Below, in pieces: positions 41,901 through 53,900 of a DNA stretch of 57,475 bases. The stretch is from Chiloscyllium plagiosum (lineage: Eukaryota), in the NCBI RefSeq assembly GCF_004010195.1, contig NC_057719.1:30563054-30620528 (forward strand). The letters run 5' to 3'. The notes under the pieces are model-generated. The model did no database searches and was not told the DNA's origin. It saw only the letters and a program-made list of their open reading frames with translations. The first letter of the stretch is position 1, and every line of letters begins with the position of its first letter. The position numbers were made by a program, and so were the translations under genes.

Positions 41901-44900
41901 GTCTAATTTCAGGCAGAGTAGATAATGGGACAACTCTAAGAAGGGGAGCATTCTACAGAGAATTGAAGGTGTTGTACTTAAATGTGCGCAGCGTACAAAA
42001 CAAGATAAATGAGCTTGTAGCACAGATTGAAATTGAAGGGTATGATGTTGTGGCCAACACAGATGTGGCTGCCATAGAATCAGGCCTGGGAACTAAATAT
42101 CCAAGGATACACATCCTATCGAAAGGACGGGCAGACGGGCAAAAGGGGCAGCATTGCCTTGTTGGTAATAAATGACATTAATTCAATAGCACGAAGCAAC
42201 ATAGGTTGGAAGGCATAGAATCTGTGCAGGTAGAATTGTGAAACTGTGAAGGAAAAAAGACCCTGATGGGAGTTATGTATAGGCCTCCGAGCAGTAATTA
42301 TGGTGTGGGGCAAAAAATAAATTGTGGATAGAAATGCATGTCAGAAAGGCAATGTTTGAATACAGGGAGAACTAGACATTTGCATACTGAACAGGTTCGA
42401 AGATAGAAGACAGAGAGTGGTGACGGAGTGTTGCCTTTCAGACTGGATGCCTATAACCAATGGCAGTGCTGGGTCCATTGCTTTTCATCATCTATATAAA
42501 TGATTTGGATGTGAACAATAGGAGGTATAGCTAATAAGTTTGGAGATGACAACAAAATTAGTGTTGTAGTGGACAACAAAGAAGACTACCTCAGAGTACA
42601 ATGATATCTTGTATAGATAGGCCAAGGAGTGGCAGAAGAAATTTAATTTAGATAACTATGAAGTGCTGCACTTTGGAAAGGCAATTCAGGGCAGGACTTA
42701 TGCACTTAATGGTAAGGTGCTAGGGAATGTTGCTGAACAAAGAGACCTCAGAGTACAAGTTCATAGCTCCTTGAAAGTGGAGTCGCAGGTAGATAGGATA
42801 GTGAAGAAGGCTTTCTTTTATTGGTCAGAGTATTGAGTACAGGAGTTGGGAGGTCACGTTGCAGCTGTACAAGACACTGGTTAGGCCACTTTTGGAATAT
42901 TGCGTGCAATTCTGGTCTCCTTTCTATTGGATGTTGTGAAACTTGAAAGGGTTCAGAAATGATTTACAAGGATGTTGCCAGAATTGGATGATTTGAGCTA
43001 TAGGGAGAGCCTGAATAGGCTGGAGCTGTTTTCCATGGAGCGTCAGAGGCTGAGGAGTGACTTTATACAGGTTTATAAAATTATGAAGGGCATGGATAGA
43101 GTGAATAGATAAAATCTTTTCGTGGGGATGGGGGAGTCCAGAACTAGAGAGCATAGACTTAGGGTGAGAGGGGAAAGATATAAAAGGGACCTAAAGGCAC
43201 CATTTTCATGCAGAGGGTGGTGTGTGTATGAAATGAGCTGCCAGAGGAAGTGGTGGAGGCTGGTACAATTGCAACATTTAAAAGGCATCTGGGATGGGTA
43301 TATGATCAGTGTTTTGCTCCCTGGAGCTCAAGATCCAGGAATGTTAATTTAATTTGCATTCTGGGAATCTAAGATGACTTTAAAAGAAAAGGCCATTTGT
43401 AGGACAATGATGTTGGGCATTTTAGATGAGCAACGTTACCTAATGACTTTTTCCATATAGCTTAGACTAGTTCCTTGTTACGACGTACTGTTAAAAGGGA
43501 AGGCTATGTAGCCAAAGAAATTGGCCATTCGGCCTGGCTTTATCAAAGTTCCCACTTCGATGTGCATGTAGCTTAATTAGTCAAGCATACTCAGACCTAT
43601 CCATGAGTTTCTCTTTCTCTGCAAACTTTTACCATTTTATTGTTGCTTGTCTGATTAAGGACATGTGGTGTTTTTGTAATTTTAACACCAATTTCTGTAT
43701 AAAGACAGCTGGTTTGCGGCAATAAAGGGAGTAGCCTGAGAGAGTTCTTAGTGGTAAGAGCTGGCACCGCTACTCTGCTAATGGGTTTAGAACCTTAGCT
43801 CATGCTTGGCTTATAGGTATCTATGTTATAGTATAACATTTAAAGGTAACAATTTAAACTAAACTGTCAGTAAGAGTTTTATATTCCAGACTATCACAGA
43901 GTACGATCACTGGGACGAACCAAGAGAGGCTTACAGGTAGAGTCCATTAGGGATTCTCTGAGCCATCTCGAATAGGTACTTTAACAATTTCATGCTGTGA
44001 GCAGGATTCCAACAAGGGATATGTGTGAGGGATACTGGAAAAGAGGAGCTTCATCTAAAGATCGGGCTTGAGACCAATGGCAAGGTAAGGTTATACCTCG
44101 GTTGCTCTCTGTCTGCATTTTTGTGTGCTGCTTTCCCCATTTCACTTTCACGCACCCTGACAGAACCCCAAATTAGACCGTTTAAATACGTACTAAAAAT
44201 AGAGACCTCGTGAAGGTAAGAGATAACAGTAAGAATTTTGTGAAGGTATACAATAAATAGGATAAATATGGGTGCGACCCTAGATGAGACAGAGGGCAAA
44301 CGTCCCTTAACAGAGATAGTGAATATGTATCCTCATTATATGAAACAATTAAATGGAATATCAGATGCAGCTGCCCGACAGAATAAGGACCGGCCTCAGG
44401 GAGGCACACATGAACTAAATCTACTTCTGAAAGTTGAACGAGAGATATGGAAAAAAGGTTGTGGGAGTAAAAAGAAAGAAATAATATATGTTGAAAAATA
44501 TAGCTAAAGGAAAATGGGAAAAATTCATGCAGATATCATGGAGACAAACTCTATTAAAAGGCGTATCATTAACTGAGGAAGGACTTGAATTAGATTGGAT
44601 AGACCTAAAACGCAAATGTGAAGCACATGATTTAGAAACAGAATTGGAGTTGGCCAAAGGAAAAAAATAGCAAAACATAAAGAAGGCAGAGAACCACAAT
44701 CTAATCTGAAATTTCAGGGGCCCCAAAGAAAAGGGAAACCAGTAAATAAAAATCAGGCAGCAGCTGTAGCCACACGGGACCAGACAGACAACAAGGACAA
44801 CTCCTTCGACTCCAGCTATCCCAAAGACCCATTATTAGAGGACAATGATTCTCCTGCAAGTGAGGAATTTGAATCGGATTCAGAGGAGAAGACCTTTTAT

Positions 44901-47900
44901 TATGCTCCCTCTCCTGTTAACTGACCTCTTCCAGTTCCCCAATAGGGACTTCCTCGAAACCCACCCGTAGTACAACCAAAGCGAACACGCGCTACAAAAC
45001 AAAAGCACCTGAACCTCCCCCCTTTCTATTCTGAGGACGAAAGTGCCAACTAAGATTAAGGCATAAGGGAACCTGGAGAAAGCACCTTTGAGTGCCATTG
45101 CCCCACCACAAATGAGTCCTGAAGACATTGATGAATTACAATGAAAGTTTAGGGACCTTAATGTTAGTCCTCGCACTCACCCTGATATGAAATGGCCAAG
45201 GGGAAATGTCCCGAATAGAAGAATCCCTAATTCACTTGCCTAGAATCAGGGACAAAATCCATTTGTTAATCTTTATCAACCTTGGAAACCTCATGAACTC
45301 TCTAGCATTATCAATAAGGCTCCAGACTATGGAAAAAAATCCCGAAGGATTTGTTAATTATATTAATAGGACTAAGGCCATTTACAATGCAGCCTCCCAA
45401 GACTTGCTCCTGGAATATGCTCTTTCCCCAGAAAAATGGACTAAGCTCTTAGAAACTTTACAATGTAATAAGCATACCCAAATCGCGCTTATGCATCCAG
45501 GTGAATCTAATAGGTCAGACTGGGTTATTACCTGCCTCCGACAAGCTGTGGGCCGTGCAATCGACGCGAGTAAAATCTTCACACTTAAACCTCGCTCAAG
45601 CGAAGGAGCTGAGGAGTTCCTTGTCTGCTTTAAAGACTGCTTTGGTGCTTACTCTGGTGAAAATCAGTACCCACAAGGACAATCACCCCAATTTAATGCC
45701 TTATTGTATGATCATCCTTCCTCACTAGGTACAGAAAGCTATTAAAACCCATAATATGCACTGTCAAGATGCCGTTTGAACAATTCAGCCGAGAAGTACG
45801 TTACGTCCGGGAACTTAGAATCCCTACAGTGTGGAAACATGCTCTTCAGCCCAACAAGTCCACACCGACACTCCAAAGAGTAAGCCACCCAGATCCATTC
45901 CCTTACATCTCTACATTTCCCCTGACTCATGCACCTAACACTATAGGCAATTTAGCATGGCCAATCCACCTTACCTGCACATCTTTGGATTGTGGGAGGA
46001 AACCGGAGCACCCAGAGGAAACCCACGCAGACACGGGAGAATATGCAAACTCCACACAGACGGTCGCCCGAGGCTGGGTCCCTGATGCTGTGAGGCCGCA
46101 GTGCTAACCCACTGAGCTACCCCGAACTAAAGGATCTTGACAGTAAGGCCTCTACAGCTAAGGTCAAGACTGAATTTGCCCAAACTGCAAGGGCTAGACC
46201 TAAAATCAGAACTCTAACTAGACATTCCTGTCTACAAGGCCAGCTAGGTTATTGAATGGAACCCTCATACTGTCATCCAGTATCTAGATTAGAGTGGTGC
46301 TGGAAAAGCACAGCAGGTCAGGCAACATCCGAGGAGCAGGAGAATCAACATTTCGGGCAAAAGCCTTTCGTCAGGAATGAAGGGCTTTTGCCCGAGACGT
46401 CGATTTTCCTGCTGCCTGACCTGTTGCGCTTTTCCAGCACCACTCTAATCTAGACTCTGATTTCCAGCATCTGCAGTCCTCACTTCTGCCTGTCTTCCAG
46501 TATGGCAAAACAATAGGGCCGGTACTGTAAATCAACAACATCCTTATGGACCTTGGGGTCCTCCTCAATAGTCCATGATGCCCCTTACTCCCTATAAATT
46601 CTCCCTATAAATCCTCTTACTATTCCTGTGCGCCTCTCCCACCCCCTACAGCCCCCAAACAACTCTAATCAACCAGGACATTGGTCCAAGAACTGCCCTT
46701 CCCCTAGGCAGCCCCCTGTTGATCACCAGAATGGAGGAAGCCAGCAATCTTCTGATACCCCTCCCCAGGGACCCCAGCAGTTTGTCCCTCTTAGTGCAGA
46801 GAACCCTTTCCGAACCTGACTCCCTGATGTAGGTCATCATCCTCCTGTGAAGCTTCCTGTGGTTACGCTAGCCCTGAGGATAAACCTATGCCAACCCTTA
46901 ACATTAATGGTCGTGATACTGAATTCATGGTCAACATGGGAGCCACTGTTTCATCGCTTCCCACTAAGCTTGTAAATGACATTGACTTTCAAATCTCAGA
47001 CAATGCTGAACACCTACAAGGTTTAGATGGTTTCTCTAATTTTTACGTAAATACATGTCAGGATATGCGATTGTCACTTTGATTCAAATGATAGAATCTT
47101 ATTCCATCGATCCACCTTGTTCTGCCCAACAAGCTGAGCTCCTTGCTCTTATCCATGCCGGTATACTTGCTGAAGGGAAGTCAGCTAATATTTACACTGA
47201 CTCTCACTACGTCCAAGGTTTTGGTCAACTCTGGCAACAGCATGGCTTTCTTACCTAATCAGGAACCCCAATCCTCCATGCTGCCTGCGTTGCTAATCTC
47301 CTCTGTGCTAATCAACCTCCCTCTCAATTGGTAATTATCAAATGTTCCGCTGACTCCTCTAATGCTTCTGATGTCACTAAAGGCAACTATGCTGCTGACG
47401 CAGCTGCTAAGAAGGCAGCTTTTGAACAAAGAGATGTGATCACTCAAATGACGAACAGGAAACCAAAGGTAGATCCTCCTTTTTCCTCTTCTGATACCCC
47501 GACCATGAGCTGACCTAGCGCAAATATGGACCCATCGGGGGATGCCTCTGATGAGGAAAAACAAGGGTGGATAAACATTGTTGTCATGTAATTAGTTATA
47601 CTGGACTTTTGAGTTACGCCGGTAGAACAGACATGTCTGTCAGATTTGCTTTTGCCTATTCTACATACGCCTACATACGCATGTAGGTAAGGAGGGAATG
47701 ATGGACAGAATTCTCCAAACTTGGTGGAATCCCCACTAACAAGAAAAAGCAAAACAAGCTGCAACTTGCCTAATTTGTCAAAAACATAATCCCGGGAAAG
47801 GAGTAAAGTGTCCACCAGGTGCAACTCCCTTGCCAAGTGCACCTTTTGATACTATCCAGTTAGATTTTATAGAATTACCTAGATGCTATTGCTATAAGTA

Positions 47901-50900
47901 TTGCTTAGTGATAACTGATGTATTTAGTAGATAGATTGAAGCTTATCCCTGTACTGACTGCACAGCAAAAACTACCTGTAAAATTCTAAGGGAAATTCTA
48001 GATTTGGAACACGAGTAATGGTCTCTTCCAATAACGGCCCCCACTTCCGTGCGAATCTCAGAGTCTGAATATGAATCAGAGATTCCATTGTCCCAAACAT
48101 CCCCAAGCAGCAGAAATTGTAGAAAGAGCAAATCGTACTTTAAAAGACCAGATAAGCAAGTTGGTAGAGGCAATGGGCCTTAATTGACTGCTAGTACTCC
48201 CAACTGCCCTTTTTAATTTGAGAACCATGACCCAGAAGAAAACAGGATTCTCGGTGACTGAACTAGTATGTGGAAAGCCCCTAAGGACTCCCTGGCCTGC
48301 ACCACTGCTGGCCCATCATCTTGTTGAGGTTCATCTAATGGCAGAAAAAATCCACAGACCCCTGACTAAGCTAACCAAAGTATTGCAGTCTTATTATCAA
48401 TAGATCAAAGAAGCCTTTTGGGTACCAGGGAAGAAAGAAGAAAGAGCTCCAACGTTTAAAGACATCAACCCTGATGACTACGTACTATTGAAAGACTTTA
48501 ATAGGGAAAAAAATGGACCCTTGCTGGAAAGGTCCTTATCAAGTTCTTCTGACAACTGAAATTGCAATAAAAATAGAAGGACTTTCAACATGATTCTACA
48601 AAGGATATTGGAAACTTGTATCACCCTCACAATCCTCGTATTAGTACGAGTGCAATCATCTGATGAAAACCCATGTACATGCGCCCAGATGCAATCTGCC
48701 CATCTGTAATATCTCTGAACTGGCTAAACCTCCAATGTGACTGTATGAACGGAATTTGTGTCAATGCTAATGAATCAAATGGAGAAGCAACTAAGGTGGT
48801 ATGTACGTTTGTTGGTATGAACAGTATCACAGGAATTAATTTTATCAATCTAAACGATACTTCAGAGGATACCACATGCCAAAACAATGAGACCATCAGA
48901 TGCCCATCAATGACTCTTCCCCTTACACTGACGACTATATCATCACCCACCACCATCACTATCACTGACGTCGTTACTACCACTCATGATAAGACAACCC
49001 TGATGACCACAAAACAGCAGAAATTAACAACACTCACTCCGCCAACCACTAGCTATTTTGCTACCCCTGTGATTCTGAACACTACCCTTGATACCATGAG
49101 AACACTAATGTGTCCCACTTGTCACCCCAATGCCACTTACAGAAACAAAACCAACAATTTAGGTGTAGAATGCCAATGTAATCACAGCTACACTGGCAAT
49201 GGCACTGGTGCTTCGGGATGCTCTGACGACGAAGAATATATTATTTTCCCCACTGCTGCCCTTGAAGATAGAATTTGTCAGCTCCATGAAACTTATACCA
49301 ATACTTCTGGAAGCTATGAATGCAGCTGCCCAGCTGAAACTCATTTAAGCTATTCACATTGCACATCAGAACATCACTTTCGACATTATTGTCACCCTTA
49401 CAATACATCAGTGCCAGTTGTCATGAGATGGCATGATTCCATAATTTCATCCACTCCATCACCCGAAAACTGTCACTTTGAAATGTTTGTCTGTTCCCCT
49501 CCCAAAAGGAACCATTCCAATTGCAATATTGAACACATAGTACCGAAGTCAAGAACGCTAAGGCATCTATTGCTCTGAGACAGTCAACCTATACCTTCTC
49601 AACAGAACCTTCTCCTATCTGACCTACGCCTACTGGCAGAAATACCTTTATACAGCTTCTGCTTTCAGAGCTACTGTAATTAGTAAGACAAGCTGGAAAG
49701 GTGAAGAAAGACCAAAAATACTATGCACCCCTAATCCCCCTTCTGTTGCAAATGGTTTCTTTATTCAAGCTAAACACTCTGATCTATGTGTCGTCTGCTC
49801 ACTCTTCCATCATTCTGATGTACAATGTATGAATAAGACTCACCCACTTATGCAACCTGCGATGACAAAACCCATTTGGTAGAAAAAGCATGTCGCTGTG
49901 TAAAGTGCACTAACAAACCTAAAGGATCCAACATTAACATTGGTCCACTGTTAGAATGGTGCATTGAAAGAACATGAGGCAAGTGAAGCAAATACTGCTT
50001 AAAAATGTTATAAAAGACACTGGTCGTACTCCTACTCTCCATCCACTAATACATTTGGATAAGCGAACTTTTGATAATACCCACTGTTTGCAAGATTCAG
50101 CCCTCGTTCTGAGTGGACTCATCATTCACTCACAGAAGTGCGCCTCGGAACTCTGTTTAACTTTCACTGGCTATGTGAAAACAAGGCTTACCTATATTTA
50201 CCCAAAGACTGGTATGGATGTTGTGCTTTTGTGCACACCTTATCACATTTTACCCTCCACCATAAAATAACTAAGTTAGATAATGAATGGAAAGCCCACC
50301 AATATGTGAATCGCTACGGAACAAAAATTAGAGGAAAAACAAAACAAGACTTGCATGACTTCTTCCATCAACAAACATGGTGGTCTAGGTTCATGGTAGG
50401 TCTTATTCCTGGCCAGGGTGTTGAGATGACCCTAGATCAGATAGGTGACCTTGCATATGACGTTGAAAAACTTACCAACTCAACTGCCCACATGTTGAAA
50501 CTATTGAACAAAGAACTACAGGAGACCCGGATGATGACACTTCACAATCGATTAGTGCTAGATTTCCTCCTTGCGAAAGAAGGAAGCGCTTGTTCTGTCA
50601 CTGGCCCACAATGTTGCACCTACATAGACAACTTCTCTAAAGACATTGTATAGGACACAGATGTCATCAATAAAACGGGTCAAGACACAGGAAAGATACC
50701 TGCCCCACCATCATCCGACTGATGTGGATGGATTCACTGTGTGGATAGTTCGTGTGGGATGCACTGATAATCCTTGGTCTCATCTGAGGAATGTACATTG
50801 TTGTCTGCTTATGCTTGAAATGGACCATGCATTGCTTTTCACCCAAGCTAAAGAAGAATCTTTTTAATCGACCAGTGTTCACTCCTGTACCTCCATGTGT

Positions 50901-53900
50901 GAACTTTTATGCCAAATCAGGTATCTTTCCGAAGAGGTGCTCGACTTGCTGAAAATACAAATGGACTGAATGGACTAATTATACTTGTATATGCTGTATT
51001 GTTATCAGAAAATGATAAATGGAGGGAATGAGAAAGCTGGTAGCCTTGCACATTAGCAAAGGAGATGCTGGAAAGCGTTTGACCAGAGGTGGGGGGGAGG
51101 TGAGCATTTGTTCAGAAGAATTAAGGACATCTATTCTTAGTCTCAATGGACTGGTGTAAGAGTTTTATATTCTGGATGACCACAGACAATGATCTCCGGG
51201 ACGAACCAAGAGAAGCTTACAGGCAGAGTCCATTAGGGATTCACTGTGCCATCTCGAATATGTACTTTAACAACCCAAGTCCTGTACTCAATACTCCGAC
51301 TAATGAAGGAAAGCATATCAAATGCCTTCTTCACTATTCTATCGACCTGGATTCTACTTTCAAGGAGCTACGAACCTGCACTCCAAAGTCTCTCTGTCCA
51401 GCAACAGTCCCTAGGACCTTACCATTTAGTGTATGTCCTGCTCAGATTTGCTTTCCCAAAATGCAATACTTCACATTTATCTAAATTAAACTCCATTTGC
51501 CACTCCTCAGCCCATTGGCCCACCTGATCAAGATCCCATTGTAATTGGAGGTAACCTTCTTCACTGTCCACTACACCTCCAATTTTGGTGTCATCTGCAA
51601 ATTTACTAACTATAAATCCTATGCTCACATCCAAATCATTTATATAAATGACAAAAAGTAGTGGATCCAGCACCGATCCTTGTGGCACTCCACTGGTCAC
51701 AGGCATCCAGTCTGAAAAACAACCCTCCACCAATACCCTTTGTCTTCTACCTTTGAGCCAGTTCTGTATCAAAGTGACTAGTTCTCCCTGTATGCCATGA
51801 GATCTAATCTTGCTAACAGTGTCCCATGGGGAACCTTGTCGAATGCCTTACTGAAGTCCATATACATCACGTCAACCACTCTGCCCTCATCAATCCTCTT
51901 TGTTACTTCTTCAAAAAACTCAATCAAGTTTGTAAGACATGATTTCCCATGCATAAAGCCATGTTGACTATCCCTAATTAGTCCTTGCCTTTCCAAATAC
52001 ATGTATATCCTGTCCCTCAGGATTCTCTCAAACAACTTGCCCACCACTGACGTCTGTAGTTTCCTGGCTTGTCCTTACCAACTTTCTTAAATAATGGTAC
52101 CACATTAGCCAACCTCCAATCTTCCAGCTCCACACCTGTGACTATTGATGATACAAATATCTCCACAAGGTGCCCAGCAATGACTTTTCTAGCTTCCCAG
52201 AGTTCTAGGGTACACCTGATCAGGTCCTGGGGATTTATCCACCTTTATGCATTTCAAGACATCCAGCACTTCATCCTCTGTAATATGGACATTTTTCAAA
52301 ATGTCACCATCTATTTCCCCACATTTTATAGACAGTCATAGAGATGTACAGCATGGAACAGACTCTTCGGTCCAACCCATCCATGCCGACCACATATCCC
52401 AACCCAATCTAGTCCCACCTGCCAGCACCTGGTCCATATCCCTCCAACTCTTCCTATTCATATACCCATCCAAATGCANNNNNNNNNNNNNNNNNNNNNN
52501 NNNNNNNNNNNNNNNNNNNNNNNNNNNNNNNNNNNNNNNNNNNNNNNNNNNNNNNNNNNNNNNNNNNNNNNNNNNNNNNNNNNNNNNNNNNNNNNNNNNN
52601 NNNNNNNNNNNNNNNNNNNNNNNNNNNNNNNNNNNNNNNNNNNNNNNNNNNNNNNNNNNNNNNNNNNNNNNNNNNNNNNNNNNNNNNNNNNNNNNNNNNN
52701 NNNNNNNNNNNTAAGATTTGCTTTCCCAAAATGCAGCACCTCGCATTTATCTGAATTAAACTCCATCTGCCACTTCTCAGCCCATTGGCCCATCTGGTCC
52801 AGATCCTGTTGTAATCTGAGGTAACCCTGTTCACTGTCCACAACACCTCCAATTTTTGGTGTCATCTGCAAACTTACTAACTGTACCTCTTATGCTCACA
52901 TCCAAATCATTTATGTAAATGACAAAAGATAGAGGACCCAACACCGATTGTTGTGGCACTCCACTGGTCACAGGCTTCCAGTCTGAAAAACAACCCTCCA
53001 CCACCACCCCTCTGCCTTTTACCTTTGAGCCAGTTCTGTATCCAAATGGCTAGATCTCCCTGCATTCCGTGAGATCTAACCTTGCTAATCAGTCTCCCAT
53101 GGGGAACCTTGTCGAACGCCTTACTGAAGTCCATATAGATCACATCTACAGCTCTGCCCTCATCAATCCTCTTTGTTACTTTCTCAAAAAACTCAAGTTT
53201 GAGAGACAAGATTTCCCACACACAAAGTCATGTTGATTGTCCCTAATTAGTCCTTTCCTTTCCAAATACATGTACATCCTGTCCTTCAGGATTCCCTCCA
53301 ACAACTTGCCCACCATCGGGGTCAGGCTCACTGGTCTATAGTTCCCTGGCTTGTCCTTACCACCGTTCTTAAACTGTTCTCTAGCTTCCCACAGGGTACA
53401 CCTGATCAGGTCCTGGGGATTTATCCACCTTTACCCTTTTCAAGACATCCAGCACTTCCTCCTCTGTAAGCTGGACATTTTGCAAGATGTCATCATCTAT
53501 TTCCCTACAGTCTATATCTTCCATATCTTTTCCACAGTAAATACTGATGCAATATTCTCATTTAGTATCTCGCCAATTTTCTGCGGCTCCACATAAAGGT
53601 TGCCTTGCTGATCTTTGAGGGGCTCTATTCTCTCCCTAGTTACCTATTTGTCCTTAATGTGTTTATGAAAACCCTTTGTATTCTCCTTAATCCTATTTGC
53701 CAAAGCTATCTCAAGTCCATTTTTGCCCTCCTGTTTTCCCTCTTAAGTATACTCCTACCTCCTTTATATTCTTCTAAGGATTCACTTGATTCTATCCTGT
53801 CGATACCTTACATATGCTTCCTTCTTTTTCTTAACCAAACCCTCAATTTCTTTAGTCATCCAGCATTCCCTACACCTACCAGCCTTTCCTTTCTCCTTGA

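Follow-up and report, generated by a model that had tools for sequence, protein, structure and literature searches.

EGF-like modules within the gamma-type Env of an endogenous retrovirus family in the genome of Chiloscyllium plagiosum

Introduction

A decayed provirus of the shark Chiloscyllium plagiosum raises the question of whether a retrovirus has carried EGF-like modules in its envelope protein, and whether these belonged to Env itself or to a separate gene. The window, by which the whole stretch of DNA analysed is meant, comprises 57,475 nucleotides of contig NC_057719.1. A first-pass annotation had noticed in it, between integrase and gamma-type SU/TM, a 301-codon open reading frame at 48673..49578 with two tandem modules at 49111-49362, and had proposed that an ancestral virus captured host EGF sequence either into SU or as an accessory gene upstream of env. 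Both the frame and the modules are present as described. The hallmarks of gamma-type Env are CXXC in SU and CX6CC in TM; variability in such proteins is greatest at the N-terminal side of SU, whose different folds are of unsettled origin (PMC9967133, in part).

Results

The provirus in the window

The window copy is a decayed provirus in which a partial 5′ LTR is followed by a gag region, a pro-pol region shortened by about 2.1 kb, env, and a 3′ LTR with an internal deletion. Its parts are as follows.

43309..43987, + strand: 5′ LTR, 3′ half only (front part absent); corresponds to positions 692-1349 of a 1355-base sister LTR, 80%
43990..44010, + strand: primer-binding-site-like stretch directly after the LTR; present after the LTR end in 12 copies
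44250..46800, + strand: decayed gag region, so labelled from its position; colinear with sisters
about 45815-46121 and 46283-46485: two short repeats inserted in gag, absent from sisters
46880..48600, + strand: decayed pro-pol (protease region, RNase H, integrase), from sister alignment
48590..48665, + strand: env start with a signal-peptide-like hydrophobic leader; mean hydropathy 2.65 over 11 residues
48673..49578, + strand: 301-codon ORF, a frameshift-bounded piece of SU-coding env
48690..48905, + strand: N-terminal Cys-rich part of SU
48750..49285, + strand: segment exclusive to the long lineage, 537 bases, in frame
48910..49107, + strand: Thr-rich, mucin-like segment, 25 Thr in 66 residues
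49111..49221, + strand: EGF module 1, EGF_3 type, with a short C-x2-C-H start
49222..49362, + strand: EGF module 2 with calcium-binding-type motifs, below the Pfam EGF_CA cut-off; its C-terminal half is common to the short lineage
49363..50347, + strand: SU core, broken in the window copy; CXXC motif at 49787-49798
50348..50850, + strand: TM subunit; ISD-like stretch from about 50540, CX6CC at 50591-50617
51014..51273, + strand: purine-rich tract and internally deleted 3′ LTR (51030-51273)

The primer-binding-site-like stretch is one that we take to be tRNA-Ser-like. Both gag inserts have further copies elsewhere in the window, and the second is an inverted pair; an ORF of the gag region, 45191-45745, has no Pfam match. 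Relative to its sisters, the window pro-pol has a gap of about 2.1 kb near 47045, so that the RT region is missing. In the sister copy L025, Pfam RVT_1, RNase_H, Integrase_H2C2, and rve are all matched, and the nearest solved RT and RNase H structures are of murine leukaemia virus types. Upstream of RT, the same copy (L025:294-806), which is of the short form described below, has a 171-residue frame with two H-x-T motifs, 2H phosphoesterase-like, for which Pfam gives no match. The window TM matches Pfam Ebola-like_HR1-HR2 (E 4e-4) and TLV_coat (E 7e-4), both below cut-off, and its membrane anchor region is broken. The 3′ and 5′ LTRs differ at 15 sites in 118 aligned bases, and no target-site duplication is readable, both LTRs being truncated.

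Identity of the two modules

The Thr-rich segment seen at first pass is present, but the count given for it, 25 Thr in 64 residues, needs correction: 25 are spread over 66 residues, and the first 64 contain 24. EGF-family identity, argued earlier by reading three Tyr as Cys, is borne out by unaltered sequence. The window copy, with five cysteines left in module 1 and four in module 2, matches Pfam EGF_3 (E 9.7e-5, 23 bits against a cut-off of 28.5) and EGF_CA (E 0.016), both below cut-off. Among eight unaltered sister frames, four exceed the EGF_3 cut-off (29.9-40.8 bits), three remain below it, and one has no match. EGF_CA stays below its cut-off of 27 bits throughout, reaching at best 21.9 bits in the eight long frames and 20.6 in three short frames.

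A host EGF profile was made from 61 of 106 EGF modules collected from the same genome, a partial sample of host modules, and every viral module was compared with 200 cysteine-preserving shuffles. The window modules score 25.8 (best shuffle 13.0) and 21.3 (best shuffle 16.5); as both surpass all their shuffles, the EGF likeness exceeds mere cysteine spacing. Across the family, all 17 first modules and all 15 second modules lie above at least 199 of the 200 shuffles. The full six-cysteine pattern survives in 6/17 first and 6/15 second modules of these decayed copies. Calcium-binding EGF modules are characterized by a D/N-x-D/N-E/Q-C start and a C-x-N-x4-Y/F-x-C-x-C motif; the start is found in 8 of the 15 long second modules, and the motif in 5 of them. 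The O-fucose-type consensus C-x4-S/T-C occurs in 11/17 first and 12/15 second modules and is ordinary for EGF, because 65 of the 106 host modules have it as well.

The predicted fold of one natural module pair (pLDDT 70.3) has top PDB matches that are all EGF proteins, uromodulin first (E 1.1e-3), a result that is partly circular because the input alignment consisted of 20 host EGF pairs. For the whole N-terminal frame, the prediction was uninformative (pLDDT 35.8). Neither the N-terminal frame nor the module pair found an EGF match when its sequence was searched against PDB, and a viral structure library gave no match at E 0.001. The idea that the N-terminal Cys-rich part is a third, degenerate EGF found no support: none of 13 copies beats its shuffles, and Pfam EGF_STAB1-2 reaches no better than E 0.05.

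As the sole query, module 1 gives 34 matches, of which 24 are proviral loci with E no higher than 1.7e-4 and the remaining 10 have E 0.18 or worse. With at least 24 such loci, the modules are common to sister proviruses, as the first-pass annotation had supposed. The EGF modules are real, and they are a trait of the virus family rather than of the window locus.

The modules in the Env reading frame

Sister copies join what is separated in the window. In L002 and L010, the leader and the Cys-rich part share one frame, which in L002 continues through both modules; L004 and L014 have a single frame from the modules to beyond CXXC; in L026, a copy of the short lineage, one frame runs from the leader to beyond CXXC; and a frame of L005 joins the SU end to TM (window 50078-50653). 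A whole env frame is found in none of the 26 loci examined, the longest stop-free env stretch being 368 codons. Since in the window the leader at 48590 is in a frame other than that of the ORF, and a frame break lies near 49550, the ends of the 301-codon ORF (open frame 48667-49578, ATG at 48673, stop ending at 49578) are points of decay. The ORF therefore reads as a frameshift-bounded piece of env and not as an accessory gene: sister frames link the leader, the modules, and the SU core. The same frames bear out the placing of the modules within the SU of a gamma-type Env, of which they are very probably a native part.

Starting at the N-terminus, the protein consists of the leader, a Cys-rich part, the Thr-rich stalk, an EGF and a calcium-type EGF module, the SU core, and TM. 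The EGF pair thus lies nearer to the membrane than the stalk, between stalk and core, which reverses the earlier picture of EGF domains on top of a mucin-like stalk. The gamma-type features are widely preserved. CXXC is retained in 22 of the 31 copies in which the site is covered; among 30 copies covering the TM region, 23 have CX6CC and 11 the strict ISD pattern. A strict basic cleavage-site pattern is matched by only 5 copies, and a membrane anchor can be recognized by eye in L002 and L021. Eleven N-glycan sequons are present in a frame of 303 residues.

Long and short lineages

A search of the same genome gave 136 matches, and sister copies are 79-89% alike to the window copy. When 40 loci were scored over this region, 25 had the long-only segment and 15 skipped it at one join; with a query laid across the short join, a one-piece match was obtained in 40 of 40 loci scored. 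The short lineage is present in at least 40 loci and the long one in at least 24, the short being commoner. The piece missing from the short form is in frame and begins midway through the Cys-rich part; it takes in all of the stalk and module 1 and stops halfway into module 2. In 12 of 14 short copies, its right end falls at 49286. What remains is one rejoined EGF-like module, with the full six-cysteine pattern in 5/14 copies and the calcium-ligand start lost; all four that were extracted beat every shuffle. The existence of the short lineage means that the stalk and the first EGF are dispensable.

In unrooted trees of integrase and of SU/TM (11 and 6 of 36 copies, respectively, being left out for low coverage or inserts), long and short copies form separate stars with support 1.0. 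The stem between them measures 0.032 in integrase and 0.092, three times as much, in SU/TM. The short-lineage LTR is common to the long LTR over the last 100-300 bases only. LTR pairs have diverged by 0.078-0.127 in seven long copies and by 0.07-0.10 in two short ones, which makes both bursts old: at an assumed rate of about 1e-9 changes per site per year, they date back some tens of millions of years. The flanks of the segment show the best in-frame likeness of 700 offsets, a modest 0.50 with the next at 0.49.

The simplest direction of change would be from long to short by deletion, which takes one capture and one deletion. This direction is drawn from parsimony, the 20 other Env loci being too distant to serve as an outgroup: in the 20 of 22 other Env-like TM loci examined, no EGF match was found, and TM is 25-43% identical where alignable. 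These loci (L188-L207) belong to other gamma-type Env families of the genome, two or three at the least, whose SU is unrelated.

Several peculiarities of single copies were recorded. The deletion of about 2.1 kb in pol (RT region) is shared by the window copy (about 47045), L039 (G000:C14:41.04 Mb), and L042 (G000:C5:48.85 Mb), i.e., by at least 3 of 11 measurable long copies. Such copies are a non-autonomous sub-lineage that was copied in trans, so that some of the long burst need not have relied on its own Env. Two long copies, L121 and L123 (G000:C8:81.24 and 81.26 Mb), are 95-97% mutually alike and about twice as divergent as the family in all regions; they are a local duplication in a fast-changing region. 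The short copies L021, L022, and L026 (C50, C90064, C92354), on small chromosome-scale and unplaced contigs, form a supported sub-clade, and segmental duplication may account for some of the short copies.

Relatives beyond this genome

Sequencing runs under three organism labels contain pieces of the env stretch. A piece of 274 letters from organism B, which covers the stalk, differs from the window by two letters and five gap letters; it is far closer than the sister copies of the window's own genome, which suggests the same insertion. Pieces under organism C are about 95-96% alike on either side, with a 90% piece over the stalk, and the short join is found in both B and C. The EGF-bearing Env family is probably present in several host species; none of the pieces listed spans an insertion flank. 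No RNA run was among the runs listed with the stretch, and one RNA run, of which about 2/100 was sampled, gave no read covering the EGF region; silence cannot be concluded from either result. Protein databases searched with the SU core, TM, and the short-form frame gave no relative, and a library of 1.84 billion representative proteins gave 0 matches; such collections seem poor in vertebrate ERV proteins, and both results are uninformative on distribution.

Selection on env

Selection was judged from net divergence between the two lineages at codon positions 1+2 versus 3, with the two fast-diverged C8 copies omitted. Integrase gives 0.009 versus 0.070, and SU-C/TM gives 0.034 versus 0.098 (190 codons, bootstrap P 0.001), a skew that argues for purifying selection on env while the long and short lineages diverged. 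In the shared EGF half, the values are 0.035 versus 0.139 (25 codons, bootstrap P 0.038, with a 95% interval touching zero), which points weakly to purifying selection on this half module. The two SU stretches directly after the module are not skewed (0.079 versus 0.108 and 0.074 versus 0.077), the pattern that a variable core exposed to receptors or antibodies would show. Among the long copies, which form a star, all codon positions differ to about the same extent, so the long-only segment is uninformative on selection.

Candidate host donors

The EGF sequence would be of host origin, acquired by capture. In own-genome searches over a partial sample of host modules, no donor above about 50% identity was found. 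Among the candidates, the exons of a gene at G000:C2:112.17-112.21 Mb seem to be narrowly ahead; the gene has an EGF_3-type exon, an EGF_CA exon, and Sushi exons, and its exon layout together with a lead from the ESM Atlas suggests that it is SUSD1-like. Its first EGF exon ranks 1/106 for module 1, scoring 71.7 against 68.6 for the runner-up and a median of 52.4. No other host module of the 106 has the short C-x2-C-H start, the pattern through which this exon was itself found. The adjacent exon, 6 kb away in the host, ranks 11/106 for module 2. A second gene, on C11, which is presumably ADGRL4-like, ranks 10 for module 1 and 3 for module 2, and a many-EGF gene on C9 scores about equally to these two. 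ESM Atlas leads were SUSD1 clusters for the whole frame (0.81) and generic EGF clusters for the module pair (0.90). In a reciprocal genome search, host modules (E 0.02) come ahead of viral copies (E 0.35). A host pattern scan had 61 matches, and the 30 examined were 4 proviral ones, 1 real host EGF exon, and apparently non-coding sequence for the rest. A D8C-domain locus was rejected as donor, its exon having no EGF.

The first-pass annotation had described the captured sequence as intronless. The missing intron is no proof of capture from spliced mRNA, because one host gene has many tandem EGF modules within single exons; at G000:C9:28.62-28.63 Mb (L111, L112), open frames of 734 and 899 codons hold tandem calcium-type EGF in this manner. 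The survey of host modules also revealed some unusual loci. The SUSD1-like gene has at least nine near-identical tandem Sushi exons (G000:C2:112.18-112.21 Mb, L108-L110). At G000:C19:5.66-5.99 Mb, a very long array with more than 100 near-identical single-EGF exon matches, beside a D8C-like match, is a giant repeat-rich extracellular gene. Another D8C-like match, at G000:C8:44707682, lies within an open frame of 1462 codons.

Discussion

Proposed history and role of the extension

We suggest that an ancestral class I retrovirus gained a host EGF-pair sequence in frame in the N-terminal part of its gamma-type Env and in doing so would have retained the signal peptide, CXXC, the cleavage region, and TM. 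The germ line would then have been invaded by two descendant viruses, each in a burst of its own. The long virus would have displayed a Cys-rich tip, a Thr-rich stalk, EGF, calcium-type EGF, and the SU core, and the short virus a single rejoined EGF-like module ahead of the same core. The extension may have acted as a disulfide-braced, heavily glycosylated, host-like spacer or shield in front of the receptor-binding core, with the triggering of fusion left to the core; a viral mucin-like domain and the proline-rich region of gamma-type SU are comparable. The proline-rich region tolerates large in-frame insertions (PMC9967133, in part). As a whole, this reading, with host EGF captured in Env, two lineages, and a glycosylated spacer or shield, is tentative, its chances being a little under even; display on particles and the shielding role in particular are what we infer from the arrangement of the domains. 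A spacer or shield is preferred over attachment or a passenger segment because the virus still spread after losing three-quarters of the extension and because a fast-changing region lies downstream.

The closest competitor, unlikely but credible, takes the EGF modules for attachment or receptor-binding parts that gripped cells or matrix, the long and short viruses differing in tropism. It would agree with the six-cysteine module retained in the short lineage, with the apparent conservation of the shared half, with the calcium-ligand motif in 8/15 long second modules, and with the fact that the best host likenesses are cell-surface proteins. Yet the modules are of EGF_3 and calcium types and not of growth-factor EGF, and such modules mostly serve as spacers; most of the extension is dispensable, the calcium-ligand start is gone in the short form, and the faster-changing region lies downstream of the modules. 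The engineered precedent cuts both ways, since particles with EGF at the SU N-terminus bind receptor-positive cells but their entry is blocked (PMC3182074, in part). A more specific version, that a natural infectious retrovirus used captured EGF modules for cell binding and that an inter-module deletion then changed tropism or immune exposure, is doubtful; if true, it would mean module shuffling with host parts in a working fusion protein, so far a matter of engineered display vectors only. It is still less probable that the captured segment was a passenger, disabling or irrelevant to Env, with spread being intracellular or helper-borne. Known env captures do usually break or replace env (v-sis, PMC13297096; nectin3, PMC4299795; both in part), the pol deletion common to 3/11 long copies shows copying in trans, and the selection signal covers the shared half and not the long-only part. 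However, the segment is in frame; the leader, CXXC (22 copies), and CX6CC (23 copies) were retained; env was under purifying selection between two lineages that both bear EGF; and the stem separating the lineages is three times as long in SU/TM as in integrase (0.092 versus 0.032).

Two further alternatives concern the history rather than the role. The short form might be ancestral, with the long form arising through a second capture of stalk and EGF into an existing module. Unrooted trees and similar burst ages leave room for this order, and the rejoined short module is a well-formed six-cysteine unit; we consider it improbable, as two captures would be required and the inserted sequence would have to complete both halves in register. 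It would alter the history only, the presence of EGF in Env being unaffected. Hardly credible is the view that the ORF represents either an accessory gene of its own, located upstream of env, or an insertion specific to the window locus. The window copy does offer a self-contained 301-codon frame with an ATG, but module 1 is present in 24 loci, sister frames cross both ends of the ORF, and env has no other leader.

Comparison with known systems

Host-gene capture by retroviruses is already known; an in-frame EGF within a complete gamma-type Env appears to be an unusual placement. A natural Env with EGF-like modules was not found in the mostly open-access papers and preprint main texts searched. 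A term search for EGF in Env gave nothing in the main text of PMC12813294 or in PMC11905727, PMC8672886, and PMC4422223, and three short motifs of this env are absent from the PMC12813294 supplement in its text form. The main text of Chen et al. (bioRxiv 10.1101/2021.11.23.469661) does not mention EGF, epidermal, mucin, or calcium; this study covers six cartilaginous fish and classifies by TM, and the EGF-Env family may be in its tables.

The backbone of the protein is familiar. Gamma-type Envs of fish and amphibian class I ERVs have, like the one described here, CXXC, an ISD-like stretch, and CX6CC, and their class I pol would also be shared (10.1101/2021.11.23.469661; PMC9967133; both in part). 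The nearest natural parallels, according to the relevant portions of PMC4299795, are CrocERV29 (KIT-ligand) and CrocERV31 (nectin3), in which host cell-surface or ligand sequence likewise lies at the env end in several copies. In CrocERV29, however, the KIT-ligand is a separate ORF between pol and env, whereas the present modules are in frame within SU; in CrocERV31, nectin3 replaces env and its donor is about 76% identical, whereas here the fusion parts are kept and the donor is too distant to name. The v-sis of simian sarcoma virus is also host sequence in env, of a growth factor, but it destroys env function so that a helper is needed, unlike the present env, which stayed under purifying selection (PMC13297096, in part). 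Other captures were not made in SU: an OGFr domain is in frame in the pol of an ERV (bioRxiv 2021.11.23.469661, in part), and CNPase and macro-domain captures of fish and frog ERVs are in pol or extra ORFs (PMC4977317, in part, citing Basta et al. 2009).

Among host proteins, SUSD1-like and ADGRL4-like proteins and uromodulin have an N-terminal EGF and a calcium-EGF in the same order as the virus, which lacks their Sushi or ZP part. The closest architecture is artificial: engineered murine leukaemia virus vectors with EGF-SU also carry an EGF fold at the N-terminal side of a gamma-type SU, but they are man-made and use a growth-factor EGF aimed at EGFR, whereas the modules here are natural and of EGF_3 and calcium types (PMC3182074, in part). 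In the EGF-Env family, the N-terminal SU is visibly built of host-type extracellular modules, in frame with the fusion machinery across two lineages. The family would thereby represent a concrete route by which retroviral surface proteins gain domains, and its natural long and short pair lets the role of such an SU extension be examined.
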